From an uncultured Gammaproteobacteria bacterium (GTDB lineage: Bacteria > Patescibacteriota > Microgenomatia > UBA10105): DNA of 64,000 bases. Shown one piece after another: positions 2,943 through 55,517 of this stretch; the stretch's first letter is position 1; the number at the start of each line of letters is the position of its first letter. Position numbers and translations under genes: made by a program. The notes below the pieces were generated by a model. It did not search any database and was not told where the DNA came from. It was given only the letters and a program-made list of their open reading frames with translations. The stretch covers positions 1,324-65,323 of the forward strand of contig CAYPMW010000002.1 of assembly GCA_964412165.1 (NCBI GenBank), given 5' to 3'.

Positions 2943-2977
2943 GAAGCCTCACGCTGCCAGTATGATACTATATCAAT

Positions 2978-3844: not shown

Positions 3845-3881
3845 CATCCGTCCTTTAGGCGCCGCTGATATAATAACAGTA

Positions 3882-5031: not shown

Positions 5032-5913
5032 ATGAAGCGAGTCTTACGAACTATACTAGTTGGCGGAGTGCTCTTGGTACTGCTTTTGGTGGTAAAAAAT
5101 TCAAATGCCTTTGAATACCCGATAAAAGAACTGGGTGGGTGCCGTGACCAAAGAGAGTGCCGGCTTTTTTGTGAAATTCCCAACCATAAAGCTGCCTGCT
5201 GGTCATGGGGCGTTTATAGCATGAAGCGAGCCGTACTCGGTGAATCCACACCTGAAGAAAAACTTGCTCCACTCGACGTTACATTCCCCATCGCTGAGCT
5301 CGGCAATTGTGAAAATTTAGCCGATTGCCGCGAGTTTTGCGCGTCTCCCTCCAATAAATATTCTTGTCGAGTTTACGGGCAAACACACGGTCTAACCAAT
5401 AAACAAAAAATCATTGATCGGGCAGAGGAAGAACTCGGATGTACCACACAAGCAGAATGTCGCGCTTACTGCGAAATCGAAACCAATAAGGACACCTGCC
5501 GCGAATTTGCTAAAAAATACCATCTGCGCCGGGTATCCAAAGCGCGGATTATAGAGTATGCGAAAACCGATTTAGGTTGCGATACGTATGAATCATGCCG
5601 AATTTACTGTGCTGACAGTGTTCACCGTGAAGAATGTCGAGATTTTGCCCAAAAAATCGGCAGAAGCGCGAGAAGAATAATCAAAACAAAAGGTGACTGT
5701 AAGACTGTAGATGAATGTAGGGATTTCTGCGAAGAACTTCCAAATGAGTGTCCAAATTTTCCAAAAACAGGTAGATTTGATCAAAAACGTATCGATGATA
5801 GCTTAGATGATGGAGAAGATGAAACAAATGAGACAGATGAAACAAACCAGTCCCAAGATGATACTGTCAACGATGATGGTGATGAAGCTGGAGACTCCGA
5901 CCTTGATCAATAG
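5032..5913 (+). CDS. secreted cysteine-rich repeat protein (five C-x5-6-C-R-x-F/Y-C-x7-9-C modules) with an acidic C-terminal tail
   Basis: Signal-peptide-like N-terminus; repeats ELGGCRDQRECRLFCEIPNHKAAC, ELGNCENLADCREFCASPSNKYSC, ELGCTTQAECRAYCEIETNKDTC, DLGCDTYESCRIYCADSVHREEC, KGDCKTVDECRDFCEELPNEC; tail DDGEDETNETDETNQSQDD... Confidence 0.6.
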   Translation: MKRVLRTILVGGVLLVLLLVVKNSNAFEYPIKELGGCRDQRECRLFCEIPNHKAACWSWGVYSMKRAVLGESTPEEKLAPLDVTFPIAELGNCENLADCREFCASPSNKYSCRVYGQTHGLTNKQKIIDRAEEELGCTTQAECRAYCEIETNKDTCREFAKKYHLRRVSKARIIEYAKTDLGCDTYESCRIYCADSVHREECRDFAQKIGRSARRIIKTKGDCKTVDECRDFCEELPNECPNFPKTGRFDQKRIDDSLDDGEDETNETDETNQSQDDTVNDDGDEAGDSDLDQ

Positions 5914-11861: not shown

Positions 11862-11925
11862 AAAGAATTCAAAAATTAAATATCAAAATATAAAATGACA
11901 ATCCAAAAATAAAATATGTCTTTAT

Positions 11926-12026
11926 ACTATTCTTACTGTAATTTGCAACTTTTTCGAATGAAAAATGTTGCTAAATCAGTCTAGAATGCGTTATACCCGG
12001 AACATTTCATTGTGTGAAGGGTATAT
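11926..12026. repeat. ~100-nt structured repeat element, copy 1 (inverted relative to copies 2 and 3)
   Basis: ~95% identical to the reverse complement of 14601-14703; termini ATACCCTTC...GAAGGGTAT are inverted repeats. Confidence 0.85.
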
Positions 12027-12084: not shown

Positions 12085-13188
12085 TTATTTAAGTCCGTAT
12101 TTGCCGTTTCCCAGGTCCCGTATTATACCACCCAGTTCCATTTTGGTAAGGAGAACGCTTGTTTCCTGAGCTCTTTTTTGTAAACGGCGGACGATCTCAT
12201 CAAAGTGTAGTTCACCTCCAGAAAGTAAATCAATGACGAGTTTTTCTTCAGGTAAAACATCGTTAGTGTGAATGAGTCTAACTTGGGATTTTTGCACATG
12301 TAATTCCTCAAGTATATCATCCACCCTGGTAATGACAGATGCTCCCTGTCGCAATAAACTTGCTGGACCGTCAGATAAGTAGCTCGTAATCGGACCCGGT
12401 ACGGCAAATACTTCTTTCCCTTGTTCAGCTGCGTAGCGCGCGGTGATAAGTGATCCTGAGTCGATAGCTCCTTCGGTAACTACAACACCTCGTGAGAGAC
12501 CAGATATGATACGGTTTCGTGCAGGAAACAAACCTTTGAGAACCGTGTGTCCCGGTGGAACTTCAGATACTACCGAACCGTCCTTCTCAATAATCTCCTG
12601 GTAGAGAGGCCAGTGTTCTGGCGGATAAATGACATCCACACCACATCCCAAAACTGCTATGGTAATCCCATTATGCCTTAAAGTAGTTCTGTGTGCGATG
12701 GCATCTATGCCTCTCGCCATGCCTGAGACGATAGTGAAACCGCCCGTTACTAAACCCTCCGTCAGCGTCTCGGTGACTAGTTTACCGTATGGAGTCGGTT
12801 TACGAGTCCCTACTATCGCAATTACTTGCTTTTTTGTTTCAGGTAATGCTCCTTTTATATATAGTGCAATAGGCGGATCAGGTATTGACATTAAAGGCTC
12901 GGGATACCCCGAATCCATCAATGTAATGATTTTGATTTCCTTTTGTAAAAGTTCCTCTTTAAACTGGCGCGGAATAAATCTGTCACGAAATGAGACAAAA
13001 TTAGAGGTAAGCTTTTGGGAAAGACCAATACGCGTTAATGCACTTTCGTTCGCCTTCCAGGCAGCAATGGCTGAGCCGAAATAATCCTTTAAAAGCTTAA
13101 ATCGCATCGGCCCGATGCCGGAGAATGCGCTAAATCCCAAGTATGCGTCCCGCTCACCCACCTCATTTAAATGGTGTATATTTGTCAT
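12085..13188 (-). CDS. dprA: DNA processing protein DprA (Smf)
   Basis: VAIVGTRKPTPYGKLVTETLTEGL...IVSGMARGIDAIAHR...AVLGCGVDVIYP are canonical DprA Rossmann motifs; the conserved dprA-topA neighbourhood is present. Confidence 0.9.
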   Translation of the reverse strand: MTNIHHLNEVGERDAYLGFSAFSGIGPMRFKLLKDYFGSAIAAWKANESALTRIGLSQKLTSNFVSFRDRFIPRQFKEELLQKEIKIITLMDSGYPEPLMSIPDPPIALYIKGALPETKKQVIAIVGTRKPTPYGKLVTETLTEGLVTGGFTIVSGMARGIDAIAHRTTLRHNGITIAVLGCGVDVIYPPEHWPLYQEIIEKDGSVVSEVPPGHTVLKGLFPARNRIISGLSRGVVVTEGAIDSGSLITARYAAEQGKEVFAVPGPITSYLSDGPASLLRQGASVITRVDDILEELHVQKSQVRLIHTNDVLPEEKLVIDLLSGGELHFDEIVRRLQKRAQETSVLLTKMELGGIIRDLGNGKYGLK

Positions 13189-13223: not shown

Positions 13224-13802
13224 ATGAAACCATGTATATTATTTGATATAGATTTTACCCTGATCGACACTAATAAGCTGCATACACGGATTAAAAGATA
13301 TCTTTTTAATTTAAAAAATGCGCCATTTGTCTGGAACAATATTGCCGCTGTGAGACACGTAGCAACGTACACACACATTAAAGATCTCAATCCTACCCGA
13401 TTTGAACGCACCCTTTTTGATCCACTCTATTATACGCAAGCAGTATATCCGGATGTTGAGGCCTCCCTAATGACACTCAAACAATTTGCCCGTTTAGGCA
13501 TCTGGTCAGAGGCTAGTCCTCGCCTTCAATATATTAAGTTATTTTTCTCTCGATTATATAATTTTTTTGATCCCAACCTAATAAGTATTACGCCTTCGAA
13601 ATGCGCGTTACTTCCTCTTCTCGCGCAACGCTTTGGTCCAAATTTATATATCATCGACGACCGCCCCGATATGCTGAAAACAGCTCGAAATTATAATATT
13701 CATACAGTTTTAATTGATCGAAACAAAAAATATGTCTACTCTCCTGACTTCAACTATATCACCACTTTACTAGAAATTACCCAAATCTTTAAATTACGTT
13801 AA
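13224..13802 (+). CDS. HAD-superfamily hydrolase
   Basis: Motif I ILFDIDFTLIDT (DxDxT) and late IIDDRPD; start moved to the Met at 13224 (the track ORF starts upstream at 13143). Confidence 0.6.
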   Translation: MKPCILFDIDFTLIDTNKLHTRIKRYLFNLKNAPFVWNNIAAVRHVATYTHIKDLNPTRFERTLFDPLYYTQAVYPDVEASLMTLKQFARLGIWSEASPRLQYIKLFFSRLYNFFDPNLISITPSKCALLPLLAQRFGPNLYIIDDRPDMLKTARNYNIHTVLIDRNKKYVYSPDFNYITTLLEITQIFKLR

Positions 13803-14585
13803 CCATAATCGTCTCAAGAAACTATTGAGAAATCCTTTAGAACTCGCTAGTAATAAGATACTTCCGTAATGGAACACATAGTACCAAAGAATCCAAGAAT
13901 TTGAACTACTTCTGATGAGAATAAATGCTGCCGAGAATCCTATCGCGCACAGCACTCGAATAGTAGACAAGTCAAAGAGTGTGGAAGTATGTTCCTTCTC
14001 AATCTTAAAGGTAACTGCTAACACCAATCCGCACCATATCATCACATACGCGGTAAATGGATCCATCACTTGACCTCCTGCCACTACTACACCAAGTGCA
14101 AACCGGGCTGGATGAGTACTACTTATGATAAGTGTACCAATGACCTGATCTATTTTTTTAAGGACCATCGTATATATTAGATTCAAACCGATAAAAAAGA
14201 ACTGAAAAATTACCAGGGTAGGTAAATAAATTGTCCCTAAGAGGATCGATAATCCGATCAAGGCTATCGCATCAATCGCTATAATGAGTCGGCTCACCCG
14301 CATACGGATCCATAGACGGCGCCGTTTAAATCTATGGGAGTAATCATGGGTGTAATCAAAAGCATTATTACATGCATAAATACCACCATACATAAGCATC
14401 CCGTGTATAAGAAAAATCTTTATAAATATGAATATATGTGATACTGATATAGATAAACCCGAAGTAAAGATAAATCCAATGAGGAGATGAAAAAAGTTCC
14501 CCAAGCGAATAAACCGGTGTGTATGAATATAGATAGCAATCAAAGTTGCTATCCGGTTTAGTGACAGCTTGACGTCGTGATTCAT
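13794..14585 (-). CDS. UbiA-family prenyltransferase-like membrane protein
   Basis: ACNNAFDYTHDYSHR fits the UbiA N[DN]xxDxxxD...R motif; ~8 TM helices. Confidence 0.55.
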   Translation of the reverse strand: MNHDVKLSLNRIATLIAIYIHTHRFIRLGNFFHLLIGFIFTSGLSISVSHIFIFIKIFLIHGMLMYGGIYACNNAFDYTHDYSHRFKRRRLWIRMRVSRLIIAIDAIALIGLSILLGTIYLPTLVIFQFFFIGLNLIYTMVLKKIDQVIGTLIISSTHPARFALGVVVAGGQVMDPFTAYVMIWCGLVLAVTFKIEKEHTSTLFDLSTIRVLCAIGFSAAFILIRSSSNSWILWYYVFHYGSILLLASSKGFLNSFLRRLWLT

Positions 14586-14600
14586 ACTAAATACACACGT

Positions 14601-14703
14601 ATACCCTTCTCACAATGAAATGTTCCGGGTATAACTCCTTCTAGACTGAATTAGCAACATTTTTCATTCGAAAAAGTTGCAAATTACAGTAAGAAGAGTA
14701 TTC
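14601..14703. repeat. ~100-nt structured repeat element, copy 2
   Basis: Inverted repeat of copy 1; shares its first ~52 nt and last ~22 nt with copy 3. Confidence 0.85.
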
Positions 14704-14740: not shown

Positions 14741-16534
14741 TTATCGTTTAAACCATTCTTCAAGAATTTTTTTGGCAATAGGAGCAGCGACATTTGAACC
14801 TTCTCCGCCTTTCTCCAGAAGCACTGTCACCGATATTTCCGGCTCACCTGTAATAACTGAATTTGATTTTTCTCCTGGCAGTGGAGCAAATACACTAAAC
14901 CAGGCATGGGTTTTGTTTTCCGGATCACCGAATTCTGCAGTACCTGTTTTACACGCCACGGGCACGCTTTTTTGTCTTCTTTCACCATTCCCATTTTCAA
15001 ATTTTTCCTGAACAACCGAAAAATTAAATAGCGGCCACCCAGTACCCCTATATGTGGTATCGGAACCTTCCATGCACGCCCGTCGCATGCCTTCTCTCAC
15101 CAGTATAACCGTATCCTCACTCAAGTGAAGATCTCTGCATGTACCTTTGTCAGTCTTATGGAGCGTCGGCTTACACAATTTTCCGTTCGCGGCGATAGCG
15201 TTTGTCCATAGATTAACTTGAAGCGGTGTAGTCTGAAGATCTCCCTGCCCGATTGACACATGATATGTATCTCCCAGATACCAACCTCCCCCACGGACTT
15301 TTTTCCGCCACTCAGGATCGGGCATCACTCCCTCTGCTTCACCAGATAGTTCAAGACCTGTTTTTTGTCCGATACCTAATTCTTTCCCCCAGTGAGCGAG
15401 TGTTTCAATTCCTGTCTTTTCGCCTAAGTGATAAAAATAAATATCATTGCTTCTCGCGATCCCCTTTACAATATCTACCATGCCGTCTTTTTTACCATTT
15501 TGGATAAAGTTCCAATTGCCGAATGAAAATGTCCCTATGGTCAAAATTCCCGTATCCTCAAACAGGGTTGTACCTGAGACTGCTTTTGACTCAAGCCCTG
15601 CGATGCTTGATACAATTTTAAAGGTTGAACCGGGAGGATATACTCCTGATATGGCCCGGTTAAATAACGGCTTAGCCTCGCTTTTGAATAATTTCTCGTA
15701 TTCACTCCGAGTTATCCCCTGATGAATCAAATTAGGGTTAAAGGATGGCGTTGAGATAAGAGCTAGTATTTCGCCTGTGGTGGGTTTAGTGACCACTACC
15801 GCACCGGTATACCCTCCCATCGCCTGATAAGCGACTTGCTGTAGATCAGCGTCAAGCGAGAGCGTGAGATCTCGTCCGGGTTTAGCGTCAATTTTACCCA
15901 AAGTCCTCACTTTCACACCACTTGAATCGACTTCAATGAGTTCTCTGCCATTTATACCTTTGAGTTCTGGATTAAAAGATTCTTCTATTCCCATCCTTCC
16001 CAAACGGTCACCGGGTTCAAAATCTTGGTAAGCGTAATATGGGTTCTTCAATTCTTCCTGCGAAATTTCGCCTAAGAATCCCAACACATGTGCAGTTTCC
16101 TGGGGATACTCATATTCACGTAGATAATCGTGCTCCGAGTAATATTTTTCTTTGCTGTACCCTTTTTCTTTCCATTCTTCCTCGGTCAAAAATTCTACCC
16201 CGCACGTTTTTCCTACCTCGCACGGTGGGCTTACTCTGTAGGCCGGAATGTTTCGCACGAGCGGTACACCCCGACGGTCTTTGATAGTTCCTCGTGGAGC
16301 ATGGATGACGGATGAACGAATGCGGTTTTCTTCGGATAGTTCACGGTTCTTTGCACCTGAAACAATAGTAAGATGAAATAGCCTAAGAAATAATACACTG
16401 AAGATAACTATCAAAATAAAATATAAAAAAGTAATGCGTGCACCCCAACCTCTGATTGGAGGTGGTGGAGTGGCGCTTCGCCTCTTGGTCATTTTGATAA
16501 TACTATCTGAGAAAGCTTGGCCAAGTTTCACCAT
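14741..16534 (-). CDS. mrdA: penicillin-binding protein 2 (elongasome transpeptidase)
   Basis: N-terminal TM plus PBP dimerisation region; STFK (SxxK), SND (SxN) and KTGTAE (KTG) motifs. Confidence 0.9.
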   Translation of the reverse strand: MVKLGQAFSDSIIKMTKRRSATPPPPIRGWGARITFLYFILIVIFSVLFLRLFHLTIVSGAKNRELSEENRIRSSVIHAPRGTIKDRRGVPLVRNIPAYRVSPPCEVGKTCGVEFLTEEEWKEKGYSKEKYYSEHDYLREYEYPQETAHVLGFLGEISQEELKNPYYAYQDFEPGDRLGRMGIEESFNPELKGINGRELIEVDSSGVKVRTLGKIDAKPGRDLTLSLDADLQQVAYQAMGGYTGAVVVTKPTTGEILALISTPSFNPNLIHQGITRSEYEKLFKSEAKPLFNRAISGVYPPGSTFKIVSSIAGLESKAVSGTTLFEDTGILTIGTFSFGNWNFIQNGKKDGMVDIVKGIARSNDIYFYHLGEKTGIETLAHWGKELGIGQKTGLELSGEAEGVMPDPEWRKKVRGGGWYLGDTYHVSIGQGDLQTTPLQVNLWTNAIAANGKLCKPTLHKTDKGTCRDLHLSEDTVILVREGMRRACMEGSDTTYRGTGWPLFNFSVVQEKFENGNGERRQKSVPVACKTGTAEFGDPENKTHAWFSVFAPLPGEKSNSVITGEPEISVTVLLEKGGEGSNVAAPIAKKILEEWFKR

Positions 16535-36808: not shown

Positions 36809-37790
36809 ATATCTCATTACATTCACAGGATTATTTACCGCTGTAAGCTTAATGTTGTTTGTCGTCCTCCAAAAGTACTTTCTCCTTCTTCTCCATCACA
36901 CGATTTATTATTGCAAGGAAATGGCTGAAACATTTGCTGTTCGTTTCCCCGATGGCACTGGAATTATCGTATTTACGATCCTTTCAATAATTTTGGTTTC
37001 CACTCTCATTAAATTGATCTCCACTGGACTAAAGATTTATCGGTTCAGAAAGGGATTACAACAAGACGTTACAGGTAACGGTAGGCTCTCAATATTGTTA
37101 GAGAAACTTGATTTGCAGTCAAAAGTTAAAGTAGTAGATTCGTCACGGATATTTGCGGTCTGTTTTGGTATTCTGAACCCTATAATATATCTGTCTACCA
37201 AGCTTATTAAGATGTTAACTAAGGACGAACTGGAAGTTGTGCTTCGCCACGAGAAGTATCATTTGAAAAATAGAGACACTATCACGCTTATGCTCGCTGT
37301 CATCTTTGAATCTTTTTTACCCTTCGTCCCGATTATTTCTGATCTCATTCGGCAATATAAAACAGATCGGGAGTTATCAGCTGATCGCGAGGCAGGCCTT
37401 GTTTACAATGGAGACAAGCTTTTATCGACAGTCCTGACTAAACTTCTAGTCTGTGAGCCACAGTATGCTTTCCTGCCTGCTCCAGCTATTACAGACGCCC
37501 AGACGCTGGAAGCAAGGATTTGTAGACTCACTAGTGGAGCATATCATCATAAATTATTTGGGATTAAAAATAGCCTGATTAGTGTTATCTCGGTAGGATT
37601 TCTTTTATTTCTCGCGTTTACTCCGGTTAACGCAGTTGAACTGCATTCAGACAATCACGACGTGATGATAGTTTGTGCTGCGACTCAATCGTGTGACATA
37701 GCTTGCAAAAAATCGGAAGTAATCATGGAACAAACATCTTCCCATTTGTATACGTCAAAAACTCACGCTTCATATATGTCTTCTAATTAG
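36795..37790 (+). CDS. BlaR1/MecR1-like M56 peptidase membrane protein lacking a penicillin-sensor domain
   Basis: 4 TM, HEKYHLKNRD (HExxH) zinc site, then a short extracytoplasmic Cys/His tail (CAATQSCDIACKK, HSDNHD) after the last TM; overlaps the blaI-like stop. Confidence 0.75.
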   Translation: MRLNKYLITFTGLFTAVSLMLFVVLQKYFLLLLHHTIYYCKEMAETFAVRFPDGTGIIVFTILSIILVSTLIKLISTGLKIYRFRKGLQQDVTGNGRLSILLEKLDLQSKVKVVDSSRIFAVCFGILNPIIYLSTKLIKMLTKDELEVVLRHEKYHLKNRDTITLMLAVIFESFLPFVPIISDLIRQYKTDRELSADREAGLVYNGDKLLSTVLTKLLVCEPQYAFLPAPAITDAQTLEARICRLTSGAYHHKLFGIKNSLISVISVGFLLFLAFTPVNAVELHSDNHDVMIVCAATQSCDIACKKSEVIMEQTSSHLYTSKTHASYMSSN

Positions 37791-37793
37791 CCC

Positions 37794-37823
37794 TTGACAA
37801 ATAAAAGAATAATCTACTACACT
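37794..37823 (+). promoter_or_regulatory. promoter TTGACA-N18-TACACT for the 37834 gene; the -10 lies inside the operator
   Basis: Consensus -35; predicted transcript start ~4 nt before the ATG. Confidence 0.45.
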
Positions 37824-37832
37824 GTGTAGTAG
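37814..37832 (+). promoter_or_regulatory. second BlaI/CopY-type operator box (CTACTACAC-T-GTGTAGTAG), perfect 9-bp dyad ending 1 nt before the ATG
   Basis: Perfect palindrome containing TACA-N3-TGTA. Confidence 0.55.
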
Positions 37833-37833
37833 T

Positions 37834-38076
37834 ATGGCAGAAGAGAAATCTAAAAGATCGCTTACTCCTGTCCTCGTCGTTCTTCTGGTAGTTGCCTCCT
37901 TTTTAATCGGTTCCCTTTATACAAAAGTTCAGGTATTAGAAAAAGGAGTTGAGGAAGGGGTTACGGGTACTCCGGGAACGATAATTCTCACTGCTAGTGG
38001 CAATACACAACTGATTCCGGGTGCCCTCCCATTTGAACAAGTAAAACCGATGATTGACGCAGCATTAAAGAAATAA
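37834..38076 (+). CDS. small membrane-anchored protein, first gene of the operator-controlled downstream operon
   Basis: 80 aa, TM LTPVLVVLLVVASFLIGSL. Confidence 0.45.
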   Translation: MAEEKSKRSLTPVLVVLLVVASFLIGSLYTKVQVLEKGVEEGVTGTPGTIILTASGNTQLIPGALPFEQVKPMIDAALKK

Positions 38077-38082
38077 TCATGG

Positions 38083-38611
38083 ATGAAGAATTTTTGTATC
38101 AATCTATTTACGGCCAGCAAAATTGTTCTGAATGACAAACTATATTTTGTAGGATTTCTGATTATTACAGCAGTTCTCTTTTGGCTGTTTTTATACATTC
38201 CGGTGAGGATTATTCCCGGCAATGACTTTACGTTTCAGCTCAGTATCCTAAGTCCCAAGGACATCACTGTCCTGGTTCTTCTATCTCTGGTTAGTGCTCT
38301 TTCACTCACCTTACATCTTTATATGTTGAGGAAAAGAACTTTAAATAAAGAAGTCGCCTTGACTCTCGGAAGCGGCTTTTTAGGGGGTACTGCAAGAGTA
38401 TGGTTCAATTTTTACTCCCGCCAGCTGCGCTGCTTGTGTCACGACACTGTTGAGTTTTTTGGGTGTTGGAACAGTGTTTTTCCTTCTTATTTACCGGCAG
38501 TATATTATTATTCTTTCGCTAGTTCTTATGCTTGTTTCTTTGCATTTTACAGCTCGGAAAGTTTTAGGAATATGTGACGTGTGTAAAGTTAATTATAAAA
38601 GAATGACATGA
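38083..38611 (+). pseudogene. membrane protein with a TM CxxC (SCAAC) and C-terminal CxxC, split by a +1 frameshift at a T5AG5 tract
   Basis: Frame 1 (38083-~38387) is protein-like, then decays to low-complexity YYYSFASSYACFFAFY. Shifting by one G at GGGGG (38383-38387) gives ...GFLGVLQEYGSIFTPASCAACVTTLLSFLGVGTVFFLLIYRQYIIILSLVLMLVSLHFTARKVLGICDVCKVNYKRMT, ending in ATGA overlap with the next gene. Confidence 0.45.
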
Positions 38612-39252
38612 ACAACGAACTTGTCGTGCCAGTTGGATTATCAAAACATGATCGCAAGGAATTTAAACGCCAATTTTATCGTGAGCTGCAACAGAAACAG
38701 GCAAGAACGGGACAGTTTAAAAAGTATGGAATCATTGGAGTAATTTGTCTCCTTATACTTTTAGGAGGCTACTGGTTAATTAAGCAAGCTTCAAAACCTC
38801 AACCAGGTGAGTTTGTGGCATCATTGGGAAACAAGCATATTCAAAACATCACCGATGCACATGATCCGTATAACTCTTTACCGCCCACGTCAGGAACTCA
38901 TGTTGGTGGGAAAGCTCAGTGGGGCATAAGCGATTCTCCTATTCCCGACGAACTACAACTCCATAATCTCGAAGACGGTGGTGTAGTGGTGCAATATAAC
39001 TGTACACCAGGTGCAGATTCCCAAAACCACGCGACTCCCAGTGCCGAGGCACAAGACGAGTGCAAAAAGCTGGTCGAAGATTTAAGTAGCATAGTGAAAA
39101 AGTATTCCGATAAAGTCCTCATGGCTCCGTATCCGAAACTGGATACCAAGATCGCTCTTACTGCTTGGACACGGATAGATAAATTCAATGATTTTGACGA
39201 TGAACGAATACAGAAATTTATAAAAGCATTTAAAGGTATCGATCATCATTAA
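38608..39252 (+). CDS. DUF3105-family protein, membrane anchored
   Basis: N-terminal TM; YNSLPPTSGTHVG and LHNLEDGGVVVQYNC resemble the DUF3105 blocks (PPTSGPH ... HNLEHGG.V..Y). Confidence 0.55.
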   Translation: MNNELVVPVGLSKHDRKEFKRQFYRELQQKQARTGQFKKYGIIGVICLLILLGGYWLIKQASKPQPGEFVASLGNKHIQNITDAHDPYNSLPPTSGTHVGGKAQWGISDSPIPDELQLHNLEDGGVVVQYNCTPGADSQNHATPSAEAQDECKKLVEDLSSIVKKYSDKVLMAPYPKLDTKIALTAWTRIDKFNDFDDERIQKFIKAFKGIDHH

Positions 39253-39313
39253 TCTTAAACACAGTCGAAGGATTAATGAAATCCTCATGAATAATCGGTT
39301 AAAATAATAATCT

Positions 39314-40894
39314 ATGAATAAAACGTACTTAATAATACTCCTTGTAGCTGTAATTCTTGGTGGAGTTTTTCTTTTTTTAAGGCAACTTGGGAACATCAAC
39401 CCGAAGGGAGAATTTTCTTCCGAAGTAACGAAAGCAAATAGTACTAAACCTCAAGAAATTGTGTCCCTCAAATATGGCGATACTTATAACTTAACCGCCA
39501 GTGTTGTCAAAAAATCTATAAACGGGCAAGAGATGAAAATGCTCGCCTACAATGGCTCAATTCCAGGTCCACTCATCAAAGTTCCTCAAGGAGCGCAAAT
39601 CACTATTAAGTTTACAAATAATACCGATGTTGACTCAACAATTCATTCGCACGGAGTCAGAGTTGATAACAAATTTGATGGCGTTCCCGATTTAACCCAG
39701 CATCCGGTAAAACCAGGGCAATCGTTTATCTATACGCTTAAATTCCCAGACGCAGGTGTTTACTGGTATCACCCACACATTCGCGAGGATTATGCTCAAG
39801 AATTGGGATTGTATGGGAATTTCTTGGTCACACCGAGCACCCCTAATTACTGGGCCGAAGTAGATCGCGAAGAAACTCTTTTCCTGGATGACATTTTGAT
39901 CGAAAACGGGCAAATCGCCAAATTTGATAAATCAGTTGTCGATCACACACTCATGGGTCGATTCGGTAAGACTATGCTTGTGAACGGAGATGATAACTAC
40001 AAGTTATCAGTTAAACAAGGTGAACGAGTTCGCTTCTATATTACCAATGCCGCTAATGCCAGAACTTTTAACTTTGCCATACCTAATACTCGCATGAAAT
40101 TAGTCGGGTCTGATAATGGTAAGTATGAACGAGAGGAATGGATTGATTCGGTAACCATCGGACCATCAGAGCGGCAAATAGTGGAGATCTGGTTTAACCA
40201 GAATGGAGACTACAAAATTGAAAACCAAACTCCTGAAAAAACTTATAATTTAGGGACTATCGCTGTTGCCCAAAATCCCGTTACCGTATCCTATCTAATG
40301 GTACCGCGTACTAATCAAGACGTCATTTATGCAATTGACTCGCTCAGACCTAAGTTTACCAAAGCACCCGATAAAGATATCAAACTCACGCTACAAATGG
40401 GCTCCTCACCTACCGAAGGGAATAATTCTATGGGCGGGCACATGATGGGTAACGGACAAATGATGCAAAACACTCAAATGACTATGGGAGACGTCAAAAA
40501 AATCGAATGGGAAGATGATATGGGGATGATGAATGCGCAATCAACCAAGGATTCTCTTAAGTGGAAACTTGTTGACCAATCAACAAACATGGAGAACATG
40601 GATATTAATTGGCAGTTCAAAAAAGGCGATGTGGTTAAGGTGAAGATTTTCAATGACGATAAATCCATGCACCCGATGCAGCACCCAATTCATATTCATG
40701 GCCAGAGATTTCTGGTACTTTCTACCAATGGCATTAAGAACAATAATCTTGTCTGGAAAGACACCACGCTCATCCAAACTGGCGACACCGTCGAGCTGCT
40801 TGTACAAATGGACAACCCCGGTGACTGGGTCATTCACTGCCATATTCCGGAACACATGGAATCAGGAATGATGAGCGAATTTAAGGTAATATAA
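39314..40894 (+). CDS. multicopper oxidase (CueO/laccase-like) with a Met-rich insert
   Basis: Copper ligand motifs HSHGVRV, WYHPH, HPIHIHGQRF, HCHIPEHMESGMM; Met-rich segment MGGHMMGNGQMMQNTQMTMG...DDMGMMNAQ. Confidence 0.9.
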   Translation: MNKTYLIILLVAVILGGVFLFLRQLGNINPKGEFSSEVTKANSTKPQEIVSLKYGDTYNLTASVVKKSINGQEMKMLAYNGSIPGPLIKVPQGAQITIKFTNNTDVDSTIHSHGVRVDNKFDGVPDLTQHPVKPGQSFIYTLKFPDAGVYWYHPHIREDYAQELGLYGNFLVTPSTPNYWAEVDREETLFLDDILIENGQIAKFDKSVVDHTLMGRFGKTMLVNGDDNYKLSVKQGERVRFYITNAANARTFNFAIPNTRMKLVGSDNGKYEREEWIDSVTIGPSERQIVEIWFNQNGDYKIENQTPEKTYNLGTIAVAQNPVTVSYLMVPRTNQDVIYAIDSLRPKFTKAPDKDIKLTLQMGSSPTEGNNSMGGHMMGNGQMMQNTQMTMGDVKKIEWEDDMGMMNAQSTKDSLKWKLVDQSTNMENMDINWQFKKGDVVKVKIFNDDKSMHPMQHPIHIHGQRFLVLSTNGIKNNNLVWKDTTLIQTGDTVELLVQMDNPGDWVIHCHIPEHMESGMMSEFKVI

Positions 40895-40898
40895 AAAT

Positions 40899-41375
40899 AT
40901 GCTTCATAATAAGCTAGCCAAGAAACATACATATTATAATAACCAATTTTTTGGGAAATGGGCCAGATTTTATGATTATGAAAAATACTTTATGTTTCCG
41001 ATAAGACAAAAGGCAGCCAAATTTTTCCCTCTCAAAGCACCTGCCAAAATTATTGATGTAGCTACAGGCACTGGTGCTCAAGCATATGAGTTGGCGAAAC
41101 TGGGGTTGGATGTGACGGGTGTTGATTTATCGCCTGAAATGCTAGAACAGGCAAAAAAGAAGGGCTCAATCTTGATCGTTGATTACATGGAACCAAGAAA
41201 ACATGTGGTAGGATGGTTGACGCATCCTCTTATTAAGCTATATGAAACTCCTCATTACGACCTTTTCATTAAAAAAGGTCTTGAACGATACTTACGTCAA
41301 GTTGATCATAAAATCAACTGTTATACTCACTTTTTGGGAATAGTCCAAATCGCGCTAATTACAAATACAAAGTAA
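40899..41375 (+). CDS. class I SAM-dependent methyltransferase, short/possibly truncated
   Basis: Motif I IIDVATGTGAQAYELAKLGLDVTGVDLS; only 158 aa. Confidence 0.5.
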   Translation: MLHNKLAKKHTYYNNQFFGKWARFYDYEKYFMFPIRQKAAKFFPLKAPAKIIDVATGTGAQAYELAKLGLDVTGVDLSPEMLEQAKKKGSILIVDYMEPRKHVVGWLTHPLIKLYETPHYDLFIKKGLERYLRQVDHKINCYTHFLGIVQIALITNTK

Positions 41376-41400
41376 ACAGATTGAAAAGAATGTTTATGTG

Positions 41401-41514
41401 ATGGGAAAAAGAGATAGACTATTCCATGCTCTTTTAAATATCGTCAATAATGCTATTAAATATAATGAAGGTAAAGGCACTACCATTAGTGCTACATTCC
41501 CGCGAACAAATTAA
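41401..41514 (+). pseudogene. histidine-kinase ATPase-domain fragment (N-box only)
   Basis: 37-aa ORF MGKRDRLFHALLNIVNNAIKYNEGKGTTISATF matches the HATPase_c N-box (L..NL..NAIKY), compare NLLDNAIKYSSRGGTITIS in the intact kinase at 55739. Confidence 0.5.
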
Positions 41515-41593
41515 GAACTCCTCATTTCTTATTCATCAAATCTTAATCCTCAACTTGATAAGATTTGTTCAATCAGAAAATAACTCCCACTAA

Positions 41594-41614
41594 CCCCCTC
41601 TTATAAAGAGGGGG
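41594..41614 (+). terminator. GC-clamped hairpin CCCCCTCTT-ATA-AAGAGGGGG (intrinsic terminator candidate)
   Basis: Perfect 9-bp stem with a 3-nt loop; the downstream run is only weakly T-rich. Confidence 0.4.
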
Positions 41615-41632
41615 AACTAATTTGAAAAGAGT

Positions 41633-43492
41633 ATGAAAATGAACAAAACCACTGTTCCCATCAAAGGTATGCACTGCCGCTCATGTGAGCTCTTAATTGA
41701 AGATGAAGTATCTCAAATTCCCGGAGTCACCAAAGTTGAAGTCAGCGAAAAAAAGGCTTGTGCCATCGTTCACTTTGAAAATATACTCAATGCTGCAGAC
41801 ATTGAAGGCGCAGTGAAGAAAGCCGGTTATGAAGTTGGTTTTAATGAGACGAAACCGTGGATTTCCAGAAAGCTAGATGACTATCTGGATATTTTTTATG
41901 CCGTTTTTGTACTTGGTGCATTATACGTTGTCGTCAGTATTTTAGGCCTCACAAAGATTTTTGCGACCGGCGCGGGACATCCAACTAATTTAATCACCGT
42001 TCTGATGATTGGTTTAACTGCGGGATTATCCACTTGTATGGCACTCATTGGCGGTTTGATACTTGGAGTTTCAGCCAGATTTTCGGAAATACATCCTGCT
42101 GCAACTGGTATGGAAAAATTCAAACCGCACTTATTTTTTAATGCAGGCAGGATCGTGTCATACATATTTTTTGGTGGAGTTATCGGTCTTTTAGGCTCAA
42201 TGTTTCAGCTTTCCGGGTTTTCATTGGGTCTTATGACGTTAGCCGTTGCTTTGGTTATGTTGACACTTGGTATGCAACTAACAGGATTATTTCCCCGCCT
42301 TGAAAATTTTAAACTTACATTACCTCCAACCATTGGAAAACTACTTGGATTCCAAAGTCAACAAAATCAAGAATATAGTCATAAAAATGCGTTTGTTATG
42401 GGAGCTACCACCTTTTTCCTTCCCTGTGGTTTTACCCAGGCAATGCAACTATATGCTATTTCTACAGGTAATTTTCTATCTGGGGCTCTTATCATGGGAG
42501 TATTTGCTCTCGGAACCGCCCCTGGGCTTTTAGGAATTGGAGGACTCACGTCAGTTATTAAAGGCTTATTTGCCCAAAAGTTTTTCAAATTTGCAGGAGT
42601 AGTTGTCGTTGCTTTGTCTCTTTTCAATCTCAATAATGGTTTAAATCTTATTGGAGTAAGTCCAACCAGTCTCTTCGAAAATGGAACAAATGTACTTGCT
42701 GCTTTCGATGATACTACTACCGAAATACAAGGAAACACCCAAGTAGTAAGAATGAAACAGTCTGCATCAGGGTATGAACCTAATTCCTTTACAATCACCA
42801 AGGGCGTACCGGTCAAATGGATCGTAACTTCAACTGATCCAAATAGTTGCGCAGCGTCTATTCTGGCTTCAAAAATTGGAGTCCGCGCAAATATGCATCC
42901 TGGAGAAAATGTGTTTGAATTTACTCCCACAGAAACAGGAAAAATTCCCTTCTCTTGTATGATGGGCATGTTTCGAGGGTCGTTTACCGTGATTGAAAAC
43001 ACAGGAAAGCCAACCGCTGCTGCGGAAATAAAAGGTGAAACAAATCCTGCACTTGCTCAAGCAGCCGGCTTGCCCACCGACTTGTCCGCCGGAGCGCGAG
43101 CGCAGGTGGAAGCTTTAGCGAAGGCAGGAAGCTGCGGATCAGGTGGATGTGGATGTGGCGGTAGAGCTGCCGCCAAAGTACCTGCGAATGCAACCCCTGA
43201 ACCAGCAGCGTTAAAAGGTGATACTCAAATAATCAAAGCAACTTATACAGTCAGTGGTGACATAACGCCAAAAGTATTCACGGTTAAAAAAGGCAGCAAA
43301 GTCCGCTTTGAAGTAACTGCAAAAGACGATGGGTATGGCTGCATGAGTTCGATCATGATCCCAAGAATCACGTCTCCTCAACTATTAGAAAAAGATAAAA
43401 CACTCATTCTTGAGTTTACTCCGAACAAAACTGGAGATTTACCAATCACCTGTGCAATGGGAATGCAACGAGGAAGTATCAGGGTAATTTAA
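41633..43492 (+). CDS. HMA-domain / DsbD-CcdA-like membrane core / two C-terminal cupredoxin-like domains fusion protein
   Basis: N-terminal GMHCRSCE HMA fold; 6-8 TM with conserved TM cysteines (GLSTCMAL, FFLPCGF); two soluble repeats ...PNSCAAS...FSCMMGMFRGSFTVI and ...GYGCMSS...ITCAMGMQRGSIRVI plus a CGSGGCGCGG linker. Confidence 0.65.
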   Translation: MKMNKTTVPIKGMHCRSCELLIEDEVSQIPGVTKVEVSEKKACAIVHFENILNAADIEGAVKKAGYEVGFNETKPWISRKLDDYLDIFYAVFVLGALYVVVSILGLTKIFATGAGHPTNLITVLMIGLTAGLSTCMALIGGLILGVSARFSEIHPAATGMEKFKPHLFFNAGRIVSYIFFGGVIGLLGSMFQLSGFSLGLMTLAVALVMLTLGMQLTGLFPRLENFKLTLPPTIGKLLGFQSQQNQEYSHKNAFVMGATTFFLPCGFTQAMQLYAISTGNFLSGALIMGVFALGTAPGLLGIGGLTSVIKGLFAQKFFKFAGVVVVALSLFNLNNGLNLIGVSPTSLFENGTNVLAAFDDTTTEIQGNTQVVRMKQSASGYEPNSFTITKGVPVKWIVTSTDPNSCAASILASKIGVRANMHPGENVFEFTPTETGKIPFSCMMGMFRGSFTVIENTGKPTAAAEIKGETNPALAQAAGLPTDLSAGARAQVEALAKAGSCGSGGCGCGGRAAAKVPANATPEPAALKGDTQIIKATYTVSGDITPKVFTVKKGSKVRFEVTAKDDGYGCMSSIMIPRITSPQLLEKDKTLILEFTPNKTGDLPITCAMGMQRGSIRVI

Positions 43493-43502
43493 AAAGATTT
43501 AG

Positions 43503-43709
43503 ATGACACAAACAATAACACTAAAAGGTTTAACCTGTGACGTCTGCGTCAAACTTATCATCAAAAAATTTATGCGAATTCCTGGAGTCGCCTCTACTCG
43601 AGTGACGCTTGATGGCTTAGCTCATGTTGAAGCAAGTCGCACGATTCCCGCAAATGAATACAAACAGGTTTTAACTGGCCTTCCGTACCAAGTAGTAACA
43701 GTTGCATAA
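43503..43709 (+). CDS. CopZ-like heavy-metal-associated (HMA) metallochaperone
   Basis: 68 aa; [15 protein letters not shown] is a variant of the GMxCxxC fold signature. Confidence 0.65.
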
Positions 43710-43717
43710 GAAGATTT

Positions 43718-46700
43718 ATGACACAACAAATTGCACTAAAAATTGACGGTATGCACTGCGCTTCATGTGAGACATTGATTGGTGAAGAATTGAGAGAAAC
43801 TTCTGGCGTATCGGGCGTATCGGTGAGTGCCAAAGAAAAAGTAGCCAGGTTACTACTAGACATGGAAAAAGCTTCTATAGAAGATGTTTTGGCTGCAGTT
43901 GATCGGGCTGGTTATAAAGCCACTGTCGCCAATCTTCAAACCCAAGTCATAGATCAACCTCAATTGGTAGTAAGAAATCAATCAAGCCGAAAACCAATGA
44001 AAATCCAGTTTGAATCACATCTCAAGGCTGAAGGTAAAATTCTTCAGGACGAAAGTGGTAAAGCATATTTTGACGGCAGCATTCGAAATGATAGAAAAGC
44101 AGTCGTTTCTGCTCATAAAGAAGATTTAGGATCAGAAGAAAAAGTAGGTCAATTGGTAAATAGTTTTGGTATGGTGGAAATTTTCAATGCAAATTTTTCC
44201 ACACCCAAAACTAATGGACACAGGAATGGAATAGGGAATTATTCTTCGAGCGAAGGAACGTTAGCGACTGAGTCGAGAAGTAACCTTAATCAAAGTACAG
44301 TTCTCGACTCCGCTTCGCTCCGCTCGAACAATAAGGGCCGGAACAAACGCATTAAACTTTCGCTTACGGGAATGCATTGTGCATCATGTGCAGGTTTAAT
44401 AGAACGATCGCTCAAAAAGGTAAACGGTGTCAAAGAAGCAAATGTTAATTTTGCTGCTGAAAAAGCCAGTGTCGTATTTGATGAAACCCAAACTTCAATT
44501 GACAATCTGACCGAAGCTGTAAAAAAGGTCGGTTACAGAGCTGCTTATCAAGAACAGGAAAATCCAGAACTTGAACGAAAAAAACGTCATGCAGAAATTA
44601 AACAGTTGTTTAACAAATTCTTGGGCAGCTTTATAATAAGCTCCCCAATGCTTTACTTTATGTTCTTTGACTTTTTTTCAGGACTGCCCGGTAAAGCATT
44701 TTTGACACCTTTAATTGGACTTATTTCTTTAGTGCTTGCTACTCCGGTGCAATTTTTATTTGGTGCCTCATTTTATAAAGGCATGTGGTCGGCACTCCGG
44801 ATGAAAACGTTTAACATGGATAGCTTGATCGCTATTGGAACCTCAACTGCGTTCTTTTATTCACTGATAAATTATGGACTCTACGCGCTCACTAAAGGAT
44901 CATTGTTTGGGGTTGGTGGAGAAAAAATACCTGAACTCTATTTTGAAACTGCGGCATTTTTGATTACATTCGTAATTTTGGGTAAATGGCTGGAAAAACG
45001 GGCCAAAGGAAAAACTTCAGATGCCATTAAAAAACTCATGGGTCTCCAAGCAAAAACGGCTCGCGTATTACGCTTTGCGAGCCGTCCTGAACGAAGTGAA
45101 GGACCCCCGTACCTTCAGGATGACAAAGTATTTATGGATATTCCCGTTGATCAGGTTGTAAATGGCGACACAATTCTTGTTCGTCCCGGAGAAAAAGTTC
45201 CGGTTGATGGAAAAATTATCAAAGGTTCCTCCGCCGTGGATGAATCAATGCTCACCGGTGAAAGTTTACCAGTTGAAAAGAATATCAATGACATAGTAAT
45301 TGGTGCTACCATCAATAAGACTGGTAGTTTTGAGTTCATGGCTACTCGAGTCGGTTCTGAAACTGCGCTGGCGCAAATCATCCGCCTGATTGAAGAAGCT
45401 CAAGGCTCCAAAGCGCCCATTCAAGCGTTTGCTGACAAAATATCCGCATATTTCGTACCGGCTGTTATAGGCATTGCTATTTTGACTTTTGTGGTCTGGT
45501 ATTTCTTACTTGGCTCAACACTCGCATTTGCTTTGATGGCATTTACTGCAGTAATTGTCATTGCCTGTCCCTGCGCACTGGGTCTAGCCACCCCAACAGC
45601 ATTGATGGTGGGAACTGGTAAAGGGGCTGAACAAGGAATTTTAATAAAGGGTGGTGAACCACTCGAAGGAGCCTGCAAAGTTAATGCAGTGGTTTTTGAT
45701 AAAACAGGTACTTTAACAAATGGTAAGCCAGCGGTTACAGATACACTGAGTCTTTCCGAGCTTGATGAAGATGAAGTGATTGAAATTGCAGCCTCCCTTG
45801 AAAAATCTTCGGAACACCCTTTAGCTGAGGCAATCGTCAATTATGCTGAGGAAGAAACAATCAATACAACTGAAGTGAATAACTTTAAAGCTATTCCCGG
45901 ACACGGAGTACGAGGCGTGGTCAACGGAAACCTCTATTACATGGGTAATAGAAAGCTTATTGAAGACGTTGCTCAACTTGAAGTTGGTCGAATAAACCGT
46001 AAATTGGAACGACTTGAGGAGCAGGGCAAAACTGCCATGATTCTTACATCTGCCGAAAAAGTCTTAGGAATTGTAGCGGTCGCAGATACCGTCAAGGAAA
46101 CATCTCGTGAGGCAGTGGAAGCATTGAAGATTCGCAAAATTGATGTCTGGATGATTACGGGCGACAATAGACGTACTGCTTTGACGATAGCTAAAGAGGT
46201 TGGTATATCAGAACAATATGTTATGGCCGAAGTTCTACCTCAAAATAAGGCCGAAGCAGTACGTAAACTTCAAGTACCAAATACCAATTTCCAAACAGAG
46301 AAAAGAAATTTTATTTTTAGAATTTTGAATTTATTTGGAATTTGGAATTTGGAATTTGATAATTCCCACAAACGTACTGTTGCGTTTGTGGGCGATGGTA
46401 TCAATGATGCGCCAGCTTTAGCTCAGGCAGATATTGGCATTGCTATGGGATCAGGCACTGATGTGGCCATGGAGACTGGCGGTATTGTAATTATCAAAAA
46501 CGACTTACGTGATGTGGTGAAAGCATTTGATTTGTCAAAAGAAACGATGCAAAAGATCAAACAGAATATGTTTTTTGCGCTCTTCTACAACGTGATCGGT
46601 ATCCCCATTGCCGCCCGTGTATTCATGGGCATTGGATTAGTACTTAAACCAGAATTGGCAGGTCTAGCTATGGCACTTTCATCGGTCTCCGTGGTCACCA

Positions 46701-47269
46701 ACTCACTGCTTATTAAATACTTCAGACCGGGAAAACGAAATTACGTTTCACTTTTTGCGCCAGTTGCGATGACTGCAATTTTCCTATTTGTGTTTTTTGA
46801 ATTTGGTAGAATTAGCTCATCGATGGGTGAAGTGAAAATGGCTGAAGCGAAAACAGAAACAACGATGACTGGAACAAGTCCAGTTAACTCCCAACTTGTT
46901 GCAGCCTTTGCAGCAAGCAACCCAAACAAAATTGCCTTTGACGGAAAAACTCCAAAATATTTTATGGGTATCTCTTCATGGATTACTGAAGCACCAGTTG
47001 CCGAAGGAAAACTTGAGCTATCTGATACAGATGTGATTATTGGCGCAATAGAAGCGGAAGAGATGCGCGAAGAGAAATTGTTCAATAAAGCAGGAGATAC
47101 AATTCCCTATTTCTTTGGGCTACCACAAGTTCGCGTAGCAGCAGTTCTTGCACCTACCGGAACAGTAATCGATGAGTACCATTTTGTAAATCAAAATGCC
47201 ATAAATCAAATAGCCGCTAAACCATTAAACGTTCAAAACGTTGATGGGATAATAACATTTTCTCAATGA
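43718..47269 (+). CDS. copA: copper-translocating P1B-type ATPase, atypically long (1183 aa)
   Basis: Two HMA domains (GMHCASCE x2), TGES, CPC in TM6 ([12 protein letters not shown]), [20 protein letters not shown]-type hinge; also a ~140-aa inter-HMA linker, a ~30-aa insert before GDGINDAP and a ~160-aa C-terminal extension. Confidence 0.9.
46334..46354 (+). repeat. tandem heptamer (TTTGGAA)x3 inside the copA coding sequence
   Basis: tttggaatttggaatttggaa read directly; encodes part of the lineage-specific insert [16 protein letters not shown]. Confidence 0.8.
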
Positions 47270-47577
47270 GAGATACTATGTCGGCCAAAGGCCGATCCGT
47301 CTTTGGCGGAAAATACAAATCTGAAATTCTGACACTTCTTACTGTATCCCGTGAAGAGGTTTCAGAAATCATAAGTGTTTATGAACGCACATCTGATTAT
47401 CATCAGGTTTCAGAGAAAAATCGTAACGTCTTAGATTTGATGCGTAAGGCAAATAACTTGCTCATCAAACACCACCTGAAAAAGTGCGTACCACAGCTTC
47501 TGGCACAAAGAAAAACTGCTGAAGGGATTAAACAAATCGTACTTTCTTACAAATACTTGCGGTTAGGAGGGTTATGA
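47266..47577 (+). CDS. hypothetical protein (4-nt overlap with the copA stop)
   Basis: 103-aa basic ORF, translationally coupled to copA. Confidence 0.4.
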
Positions 47578-48092
47578 GTAAAAATAGACAAACCAAAGAT
47601 AAATCTGTTTTTTGGATCATCGGCGGGATTACTGCACTCGCAATTATTGCCATCGGTTTTGTGGCCTTCAGTGAATCAAAAAGTCAGGTGCAAGTCACTT
47701 CATACGAAACTACGAGCACTTCCCGGCCCAAAGTTGTTGTTGCTTCACATTTTCAAAACTTGGGGGTAATGAAAGAGACAGATGAGAAAACTGCAGAATT
47801 TACGATTGAAAATATGGGCGATAAACCATTACAACTTTTCAAAGTCACCTCATCCTGCGGTTGCACATTTGGATCAGTCACTATCAATGGACAAAAGAGT
47901 CCTGAATTTAGTATGCATAGTAAAAGTAACTGGTCGGGTGAGCTTGCACCTCGTCAAAAAGCAACCGTATCTGTCACCTACAAACCAAATATTATGCCAG
48001 TTAAAGGTGAAGTAACAAGAGATGTGTATGTCAGTACAAATGATCCTGATGATAAAGAACTGACATTTACTGTCAAGGCTTATGTTGAATAG
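47574..48092 (+). CDS. DUF1573-domain protein, membrane anchored
   Basis: N-terminal TM; KVTSSCGCTFG matches the DUF1573 CGC signature; beta-rich remainder. Confidence 0.55.
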   Translation: MSKNRQTKDKSVFWIIGGITALAIIAIGFVAFSESKSQVQVTSYETTSTSRPKVVVASHFQNLGVMKETDEKTAEFTIENMGDKPLQLFKVTSSCGCTFGSVTINGQKSPEFSMHSKSNWSGELAPRQKATVSVTYKPNIMPVKGEVTRDVYVSTNDPDDKELTFTVKAYVE

Positions 48093-55226: not shown

Positions 55227-55305
55227 AATATTTAGTATTTGCTAAAAATAGTATTTTGTCAAGTATCTAACATTTAAAATAAAAACGAAATAGTCATTTA
55301 ACATT

Positions 55306-55402
55306 ATACCCTTCACACAATGAAATGTTCCGGGTATAACTCCTTCTAGACTGATTTAATCCCGATATTACATCGGGACAAATTACAGTAAGAAGGGTAT
55401 AC
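55306..55402. repeat. ~100-nt structured repeat element, copy 3 (adjacent to tRNA-Tyr)
   Basis: First 52 nt and last 22 nt match copy 2 (14601-14703); the internal hairpin is replaced by CCCGATATTACATCGGG; termini ATACCCTTC/GAAGGGTAT. Confidence 0.8.
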
Positions 55403-55432
55403 ATCGATGATGTGGTTTTGCAAGAGTTTAAG

Positions 55433-55517
55433 TGCCAGGGCTAGGATTCGAACCTAGGTAGCCCGTTAAGGCGGCAGTTTTACAGACTGCTCCGATTGTC
55501 CGCTCCGGCACCCTGGC
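55433..55517 (-). tRNA. tRNA-Tyr (anticodon GUA), long variable arm
   Basis: Reverse-strand cloverleaf: acceptor GCCAGGG/CCCTGGC, anticodon stem GCAGT/ACTGC with loop CTGTAAA, long variable arm, T-arm CTAGG-TTCGAATC-CCTAG. Confidence 0.85.

Follow-up and report, generated by a model that had tools for sequence, protein, structure and literature searches.

The region analysed here, referred to throughout as the window, is a stretch of 64 kb from contig CAYPMW010000002.1 with a GC content of ~41%, in which three copies of a short repeated element, the subject of this report, lie among tightly packed housekeeping genes. A 40-nt core of the element matches the window at 11976-12015 (minus strand, 2 mismatches), 14610-14649 (plus strand, 1 mismatch) and 55315-55354 (plus strand, no mismatch), and none of 100 shuffles yielded even one such match. 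The full repeat units, the boundaries of which were set by alignment with the flanks (TATACCC ... GTATA; similarity ends outside), extend over 11923-12025 on the minus strand (copy 1), 14600-14702 on the plus strand (copy 2) and 55305-55401 on the plus strand (copy 3). A covariance model built from 21 aligned copies (R1) scores them at 103.5, 106.3 and 83.6 bits, respectively. A preliminary description of the region had correctly recognised three copies, to which it must be added that copy 1 has the opposite orientation to the other two, and that the end given for copy 3 (55402) lies 1-2 nt beyond the unit.

All three copies are intergenic, as previously stated, and located between minus-strand genes. 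Copy 1 is found between dprA (12085-13188, minus strand) and topA (9798-11861, minus strand), in the same sense as both. Copy 2, which is 2.6 kb from copy 1 and in the opposite orientation, is flanked by a PBP2 gene (14741-16534, minus strand) and a UbiA-like gene (13794-14585, minus strand); it is antisense to the two genes and separated by 14 nt from the start codon of the latter. Copy 3, antisense to the minus-strand genes around it, is placed between the gene of a 1688-aa CBM/SH3 protein and tRNA-Tyr (55432-55517, minus strand), from the end of which it is separated by the 30 nt reported before. This adjacency is incidental, and is not a feature of the family, only two of 22 copies of which adjoin a tRNA. 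The tRNA-Tyr gene was found by ARAGORN and obtains 51.5 bits in a local Rfam scan (cut-off, 29); that it is not listed in the whole-window Rfam scan at the gathering threshold is probably due to a filter effect on a tRNA with a long variable arm.

The element proper measures ~81-100 bp, and the unit including the flanking TA dinucleotides 85-104 nt. From 5' to 3' it consists of TA, an 8-nt terminal inverted repeat (TIR; TACCCTTC), hairpin a (ACAnnn-loop-nnnTGT), the block GGGTATAAC-TCCTTCTAGAC, hairpin b, the segment AAGAAGGGTA which contains the right TIR, and a second TA. In copy 3, the TA dinucleotides are at 55305-55306 and 55400-55401, and the left TIR TACCCTTC (55307-55314) and right TIR GAAGGGTA (55392-55399) can be read directly on the plus strand. 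Between them lie hairpin a (55315-55328, plus strand), the block GGGTATAACTCCTTCTAGAC (55332-55351, plus strand; alignment columns 28-47) and the long hairpin b (55350-55389, plus strand), the lower stem of which is formed by ACTGATTT and AAATTACAGT and the tip of which (55360-55378, plus strand) reads TCCCGAT-ATTAC-ATCGGGA. In copy 1 (minus strand), TA is at 12025-12024, the left TIR TACCCTTC at 12023-12016, a degenerate right TIR GAATAGTA at 11932-11925, and the second TA at 11924-11923. In copy 2 (plus strand), TA at 14600-14601 precedes the left TIR (14602-14609); the right TIR GAAGAGTA (14693-14700) has one mismatch and is followed by TT, decayed from TA, at 14701-14702.

The inverted repeats are therefore 8 bp long, or 10 bp counting the TA, and the 9-nt terminal repeats attributed to all copies are perfect only in copy 3, which ends GAAGGGTAT. 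They are imperfect in copy 1, which ends GAATAGTAT (to the unit end, GAATAGTATA), and in copy 2, which ends GAAGAGTAT (to the unit end, GAAGAGTATT); the mismatches in the right TIR number two, one and none in copies 1, 2 and 3, respectively. The core and 3' block are likewise present in all three copies without being strictly identical, since copy 1 deviates (GCA for TCC, and ...AAGAAT). The difference reported in the central hairpin is real: copies 1 and 2, of the long-hairpin type, have GCAAC-ATTTTTC-ATTC-GAAAAA-GTTGC, while copy 3 carries its short-type tip on the long lower stem.

Further copies were sought in other genomes, and the counts given here cover the window together with the loci and contigs fetched from pattern scans. 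An internal 19-mer led to five true copies on separate contigs of the JGI metagenome Ga0265292, which are near-identical to each other and have perfect termini and unrelated flanks; an internal 21-mer searched for exactly among the GTDB species representatives gave no match. The pattern TATACCCTTC-N65-95-GAAGGGTATA returned 30 loci, of which 16 are clear family members in nine metagenome-assembled genomes (MAGs) from the candidate phyla radiation (CPR, Patescibacteria) and ~14 are unrelated, as chance predicts for a TIR-gap-TIR pattern. The hosts include Parcubacteria SURF_62 (four loci), two MAGs of Gottesmanbacteria (three loci), a MAG of Saccharibacteria (two loci), Levybacteria (one locus), an unclassified member of the Patescibacteria (one locus) and two ERP119705 MAGs titled Gammaproteobacteria (three loci). 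For the loci L010, L018 and L035 (CAYHQC01 and CAYIXE01, titled 'uncultured Gammaproteobacteria'), the nearest named relatives of MurF and of the prepilin peptidase belong to Gottesmanbacteria and Patescibacteria, which suggests that the title of these records is probably wrong. The window itself is assigned to a Gottesmanbacteria-like CPR bacterium: the non-self relatives of its DprA are at most 63% identical, and all named ones are Candidatus Gottesmanbacteria, Microgenomates or Patescibacteria. No HIP1 sites occur in the window, and a cyanobacterial origin was rejected. The family is so far confined to the CPR.

The distribution is patchy, with ~80 kb of related genomes giving no match to model R1. 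Neither the window nor ~400 kb of fetched loci yielded further copies to the same model, degenerate ones included. Two scans of viral contigs gave one chance match and none, respectively, and nothing similar to the element was present in plasmid and phage collections. Genomes with only ~69% identity in their genes have elements that are 94-96% identical, and the flanks of the element differ copy by copy across genomes. The similarity between the three copies might have been ascribed to chance or to a local duplication confined to the window, given that there are only three of them here and that two are 2.6 kb apart. The shuffles described above and the more than 20 copies in other genomes and metagenomes, all with unrelated flanks, exclude this explanation, to which we attach practically no probability. 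Some of the loci returned by the pattern scan, i.e., L020/L022 (a Peptococcaceae MAG), L029/L033 (Gammaproteobacteria TamC13-13) and L013/L015 (Bacteroidales), contain unrelated palindromic repeats sharing the terminal 10-mer TATACCCTTC...GAAGGGTATA; they come in pairs in the same genome and resemble further families of MITE-like elements (MITE, miniature inverted-repeat transposable element). One of the Ga0265292 contigs bearing an element copy also has a transfer-messenger RNA gene (L004, 889-1330).

Two independent loci could be compared in filled and empty form. At the first, the murF-degT junction, the filled form is that of L035. Relatives of L035 were fetched through MurF sequences at 98%, 90% and 88% identity, and in L043, L044, L045 and L046 murF and degT overlap by ATGA, with no element and no covariance-model match. 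L035 and L043 are 98.0% identical over 2828 nt, with no gaps, up to the insertion point. The filled junction reads CGCAT/TA-TACCCTTC...GAAGGGTA-TA/CATGATT. When the element and one TA are removed from L035, the resulting CGCATTACATGATT equals in length the empty alleles CGTATCATATGATT and CGTATCTCATGATT, and murF regains its stop codon and its ATGA overlap with degT, whereas removal of all 103 nt restores neither. At the second locus, a type IV pilin-like gene, the element lies 11 nt into the gene in L018, L010 and L047, and is missing from L049 and L050 (86% identical) and from L051 (80%). Here, too, the reconstruction retaining one TA, TTATGAAATCATATACCAAGGCC, is equal in length to the observed empty allele, TTATGAAATTATATACCAAAGCC. 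The restoration of length and frame at both loci indicates that the element makes a 2-bp duplication of a TA target site, and the existence of empty sites in genomes 98% identical to filled ones means that transposition has been recent. Other comparisons are of a similar kind. L001 is syntenic with window positions 2394-4646 at ~69% identity and carries a copy at a position occupied in the window by nothing but a 35-nt spacer, and the dprA-topA spacer is 223 nt in the window, copy 1 included, versus 71-83 nt without the element in the relatives L040-L042. Assemblies break at the copies (Logan contigs; the contig end of L047). The exact TopA of the window was found only on two short Logan metagenome contigs, L007 and L008, both of which start inside copy 1, as expected of an assembly broken at a repeat.

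Bacterial MITEs are described as A+T-rich elements of less than 200 bp with TIRs, a terminal 5'-TA-3', target-site duplication and instances of fusion to open reading frames (ORFs) (PMC2229807, PMC3184786). The element is small and noncoding, has TIRs, ends in TA with an associated duplication, occurs in dispersed copies of mixed orientation, is polymorphic between filled and empty sites, and becomes fused to ORFs. Based on these properties, we regard the repeats, with a probability of roughly 0.8, as a non-autonomous DNA transposon which inserts at TA and constitutes a new MITE family of the Patescibacteria. The family is new, but the kind of element is well known, and it is not a new kind of RNA. 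Of the two possibilities left by the preliminary description, a MITE or a family of small structured RNAs, the former is supported by the dispersed copies, the two filled and empty pairs with TA duplication and the mixed orientation. A TA duplication is the signature of transposition by DDE enzymes of the IS630/Tc1-mariner type, although the IS5/IS427 group is an alternative source. Judging by the target-site duplication alone, the element is probably mobilised by a TA-duplicating transposase resembling those of the IS630/Tc1-mariner type.

The structure of the element has to be considered in more depth, since it bears on two other explanations. The window copies have a weak hairpin a of 3-4 bp, which in other lineages extends to 6 bp; two of its six pairs show compensatory changes (pair 11:24, AU/GC; pair 14:21, AU/UA/GU). 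In hairpin b, compensatory double changes affect 12 of 19 pairs, and 96% of the cells are paired among 18 distinct sequences. Overall, 14 pairs have double changes, none of 500 shuffles reaches the observed score and slid controls score far lower, with the qualification that fitting the alignment to the model somewhat favours the structure. The fold z-scores are -5 to -6.5 relative to shuffled controls on both strands, and about -5 on both strands for copy 3. The block GGGTATAACTCCTTCTAGAC is unchanged in 15 of 21 copies and complementary to both termini, to the left one through GGGTATA and to the right one through TCCTTCT. A terminal helix (1-10 with 96-105) is indistinguishable from two lower stems that join the ends to the internal block (1-7 with 28-34 and 37-43 with 95-101), because these columns hardly vary and the termini were forced by the search pattern in 14 sequences. 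The element has no conserved ORF. A 9-codon ORF of the window copies, MKCSGYN(S/A)F, is absent from the other lineages, and a coding element was therefore rejected.

These data contain most of what could be said for a structured non-coding RNA family, in which the repeats would be paralogous genes for small RNAs, or cis-regulatory leaders, whose peripheral stem varies. The covariation is significant, the fold z-scores are low, the near-invariant block is unpaired in such a model and offers an anti-Shine-Dalgarno-like CUCCUU (AAGGAG on the other strand), and conservation is far higher in the element than in its flanks. The structural covariation anticipated in the preliminary description is thus present, but alone it does not make the element an RNA gene. 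The non-Watson-Crick cells (19 CA/AC versus 6 GU/UG) do not clearly single out a transcribed strand. Promoter and terminator signals are not above those of shuffled sequences, and there are none in the conserved parts of the element. Comparison with Rfam matched no family: only chance-level hits came from the whole window at the gathering threshold and, at E ≤ 10, from the three copies (aspC, E = 8.4, in copy 3 alone; AfaR, mir-722 and others), and 18 family loci at the gathering threshold gave nothing on the element. Moreover, the copies have no fixed orientation relative to genes, are missing at the orthologous positions of relatives 98% identical, and can be inserted inside coding sequence. 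Taken together, these results make an RNA family very improbable.

The same hairpins might instead be the recognition structures of a single-strand DNA element moved by an HUH/Y1 transposase, either a REPIN/BIME-like unit dependent on a RAYT or a PATE derived from IS200/IS605. Besides the two hairpins kept by compensatory changes, the complementarity of both termini to the internal block recalls the pairing between guide and cleavage site in such elements, and RayT-like Y1 transposases (PF01797, with HUH and Y motifs) are encoded 1-3 kb from the element in L010, L018 and L047. Elements of the HUH/Y1 class, however, are not known to make a target-site duplication, and both filled and empty pairs require one of 2 bp. 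The RayT genes are flanked by unrelated REP-like repeats of their own (GTGCGAAGCTAKTCCACCC), and both these repeats and a Y1 gene are missing from the window. In addition, copies 1 and 2 are in opposite orientations within 2.6 kb, so that no strand is preferred, the two hairpins do not resemble one another, no GTAG head is present, and the halves of the element differ beyond the first 10 nt. Movement of this kind is consequently unlikely. As a separate observation, the RayT-like genes (L018 6205-6876; L010 3477-4136 and 1-510; L047 3190-3861) and their REP-like repeats of ~40 nt, which share GTGCGAAGCTAKTCCACCC and are direct around one gene and inverted around the other, look like a REP/RAYT system in a CPR genome. 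An integron attC site was also rejected, as there are no RYYYAAC/GTTRRRY cores and the housekeeping genes around the element vary in orientation.

Hairpin b has a variable tip, which was proposed earlier to be swappable. At least two types of tip occur, a long one, GCAAC-ATTTTTC-nnnn-GAAAAA-GTTGC, and a short one, TCCCGAT-nnn-ATCGGGA or CCCGCC-TTT-GGCGGG. Both long and short tips occur within the same genome in three cases, i.e., the window, SURF_62 and the ERP119705 lineage. The exchange is strongly supported by L010 and L018, which are orthologous, with flanks 93% identical over 3.4 kb, and have at the same site elements that are identical save for a short versus a long tip. Each genome has its own form of the left half of the element, but the types of tip recur across genomes, a combination that argues for recombination or gene conversion among copies. 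The short-tip hairpin TCCCGAT-nnn-ATCGGGA also stands alone, outside any copy, at two CPR loci (L011 3233-3251 and L025 5351-5368); extrapolation from shuffles gives ~0.05 occurrences expected by chance.

With respect to neighbouring genes, about nine copies are in sense orientation, about nine in antisense and four mixed, i.e., there is no bias. The insertion sites are short spacers or the first or last few codons of genes, and many copies sit 1-20 nt from a start or stop codon. At the right TIR GAAGGGTA, an outward-facing GAAGGG resembles a Shine-Dalgarno sequence, and a start codon follows the right end after 1 nt in L035 and after 4-15 nt in L001, L004 and L012. In L035, murF reads 17 codons into the element, and GAAGGG is positioned 7 nt upstream of the degT ATG. 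This arrangement suggests that the outward-facing GAAGGG could serve as a ribosome-binding site. In the pilin-like gene, the net insertions of 102 nt (L018, element at 5207-5310) and 93 nt (L010, element at 1407-1501) are multiples of three and stop-free. They follow codon 4 and lengthen the leader by 34 and 31 aa, respectively, so that the filled leader reads MKSY-[insert]-TKAFTLIEL versus MKLYTKAFTLIEL in the empty form. The insertion has been kept across 7% sequence divergence with two different tips.

It is possible, though rather doubtful, that these features reflect more than tolerance, and that the element is a transposon-borne structured module kept by CPR hosts for some work in expression. 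The covarying hairpins, the internal block with its anti-Shine-Dalgarno-like and AAGGAG sequences, and the Shine-Dalgarno-like ends could together form a portable unit that couples or insulates translation in packed operons. Likewise, the exchangeable tip, which also stands alone, could be a separate recognition site for a protein of the host or of the element. The stop-free, in-frame insertion in the prepilin leader, with the frame kept by both tips, hints at selection on inserted copies.

If the element is a MITE, as we prefer, a transposase acting in trans would bind its ends, excise it and paste it into a TA. The insertions would be tolerated because each end has an outward-facing GAAGGG usable as a ribosome-binding site, and because some sequence variants are stop-free in one frame. 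The hairpins are presumably needed either for recognition by the transposase or for harmless folding of read-through RNA; recognition by a host factor or a role in translation might likewise account for the conservation of the interior. Tips would pass from copy to copy, recombination or gene conversion among paralogues being the simplest route, and the family would spread horizontally among CPR lineages.

Several observations weigh against this scheme. Neither an autonomous element with the same ends nor an IS630-type transposase was found in the window or in the fetched loci, and the ~56 ORFs scanned in the window include no transposase of any kind. Pairs of element ends 0.5-3 kb apart are missing from every fetched locus, and the plasmid and phage collections contained no autonomous partner. 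The TIR, only 8 bp (10 with the TA), is short for the ends of IS630-family elements. Its invariance is in part an artefact: the left TIR TACCCTTC is identical in all 21 aligned copies, 14 of which were found by a pattern demanding perfect TIRs, although the Ga0265292 copies, found by an internal probe, have perfect TIRs as well. The conservation of the interior, with covarying hairpins a and b and a 20-nt block near-invariant across the CPR, is unusual for a passive MITE, and some further constraint acts on it. Finally, the TA duplication, TA being self-complementary, was deduced from the restored length and frame at two loci rather than observed. An rve integrase gene and the RayT-like genes of L018 and L010 were considered as parents of the element and rejected, since they have other ends.

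Among known systems, the RUP and Correia elements appear to be the closest analogues. RUP is a 107-bp MITE of Streptococcus pneumoniae ascribed to IS630-Spn1 (PMC2229807). Like the CPR element, it is noncoding and ~100 bp long, has TIRs and TA at both ends, inserts at TA, and is present in many dispersed, mostly intergenic copies (PMC2229807). The two have no sequence similarity, and RUP has a candidate parent insertion sequence with matching TIRs, whereas none was found here. The CPR element also differs in its 8-bp TIR, its covarying hairpins, one of them with an exchangeable tip, and its host range, which comprises several phylum-level lineages instead of one species. The Correia elements of Neisseria (CREE/NEMIS) are MITEs of ~100-157 bp with TA ends (size and class: PMC3184786). 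They share with the present family the existence of length variants differing by an internal segment, and a gene-adjacent location from which they can supply expression signals (promoters: PMC3184786). Their TIRs, however, are 26 bp long versus 8 bp, they have a site for integration host factor and functional promoters, while no promoter was detected in the CPR element, and the host clades are unrelated. To our knowledge, no cognate transposase of the Correia elements has been identified.

REPINs and BIMEs resemble the element in being dispersed extragenic units of ~100 nt that fold into hairpins of conserved structure, and RayT-like genes are present in some of the same genomes. A REPIN, however, consists of two inverted REPs with a GTAG head and makes no target duplication, in contrast to the unlike halves and TA duplication of the CPR element. 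Stowaway-type MITEs, the Tc1/mariner-related elements of eukaryotes, are comparable in their TA duplication, small size, A+T-richness, genic neighbourhoods and stable fold. Apart from their eukaryotic hosts, they differ in that their TIRs are longer and the whole element forms one hairpin, while the CPR element has two local hairpins.

The genomes of CPR bacteria are very small and streamlined, and literature searches returned no description of the element, nor of any MITE family in CPR/Patescibacteria. The present family shows recent mobility and has probably been exchanged across phylum-level CPR lineages. It also points to a TA-targeting transposase active in the CPR. Such an enzyme would be useful as a genetic tool, in organisms which are reported to be only now becoming genetically tractable (PMC10187176). 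In practical terms, the element breaks short-read assemblies and creates spurious N- and C-terminal extensions in gene calls, such as the 17 additional residues of MurF and the 31-34 of the pilin leader, and model R1 can be used to mask it in annotation. Beyond CPR biology, annotation and the lead to a transposase, the element is of an ordinary kind.

The window also contains a metal-resistance island at ~33000-48000, which includes a MarR regulator, a Penicillinase_R repressor with a BlaR-like M56 peptidase, a multicopper oxidase, a DsbD/cupredoxin/HMA protein and a P-type ATPase of 1183 aa; the GC skew flips sign across part of it. A 47-nt direct repeat in this copper/metal-resistance cluster (33631-33677 and 36190-36236; 94% identical) contains the palindrome AGAAACACTT-N13-AAGTGTTTCT, and its copies are just upstream of minus-strand starts. 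The BlaI/CopY-type repressor encoded next to them (36428-36808) may use them as operators. A 63-nt inverted repeat (34019-34081 and 46414-46476; 83% complementary), situated between a region of small ORFs and the P-type ATPase gene, may reflect the coding sequence of a shared metal-binding domain.

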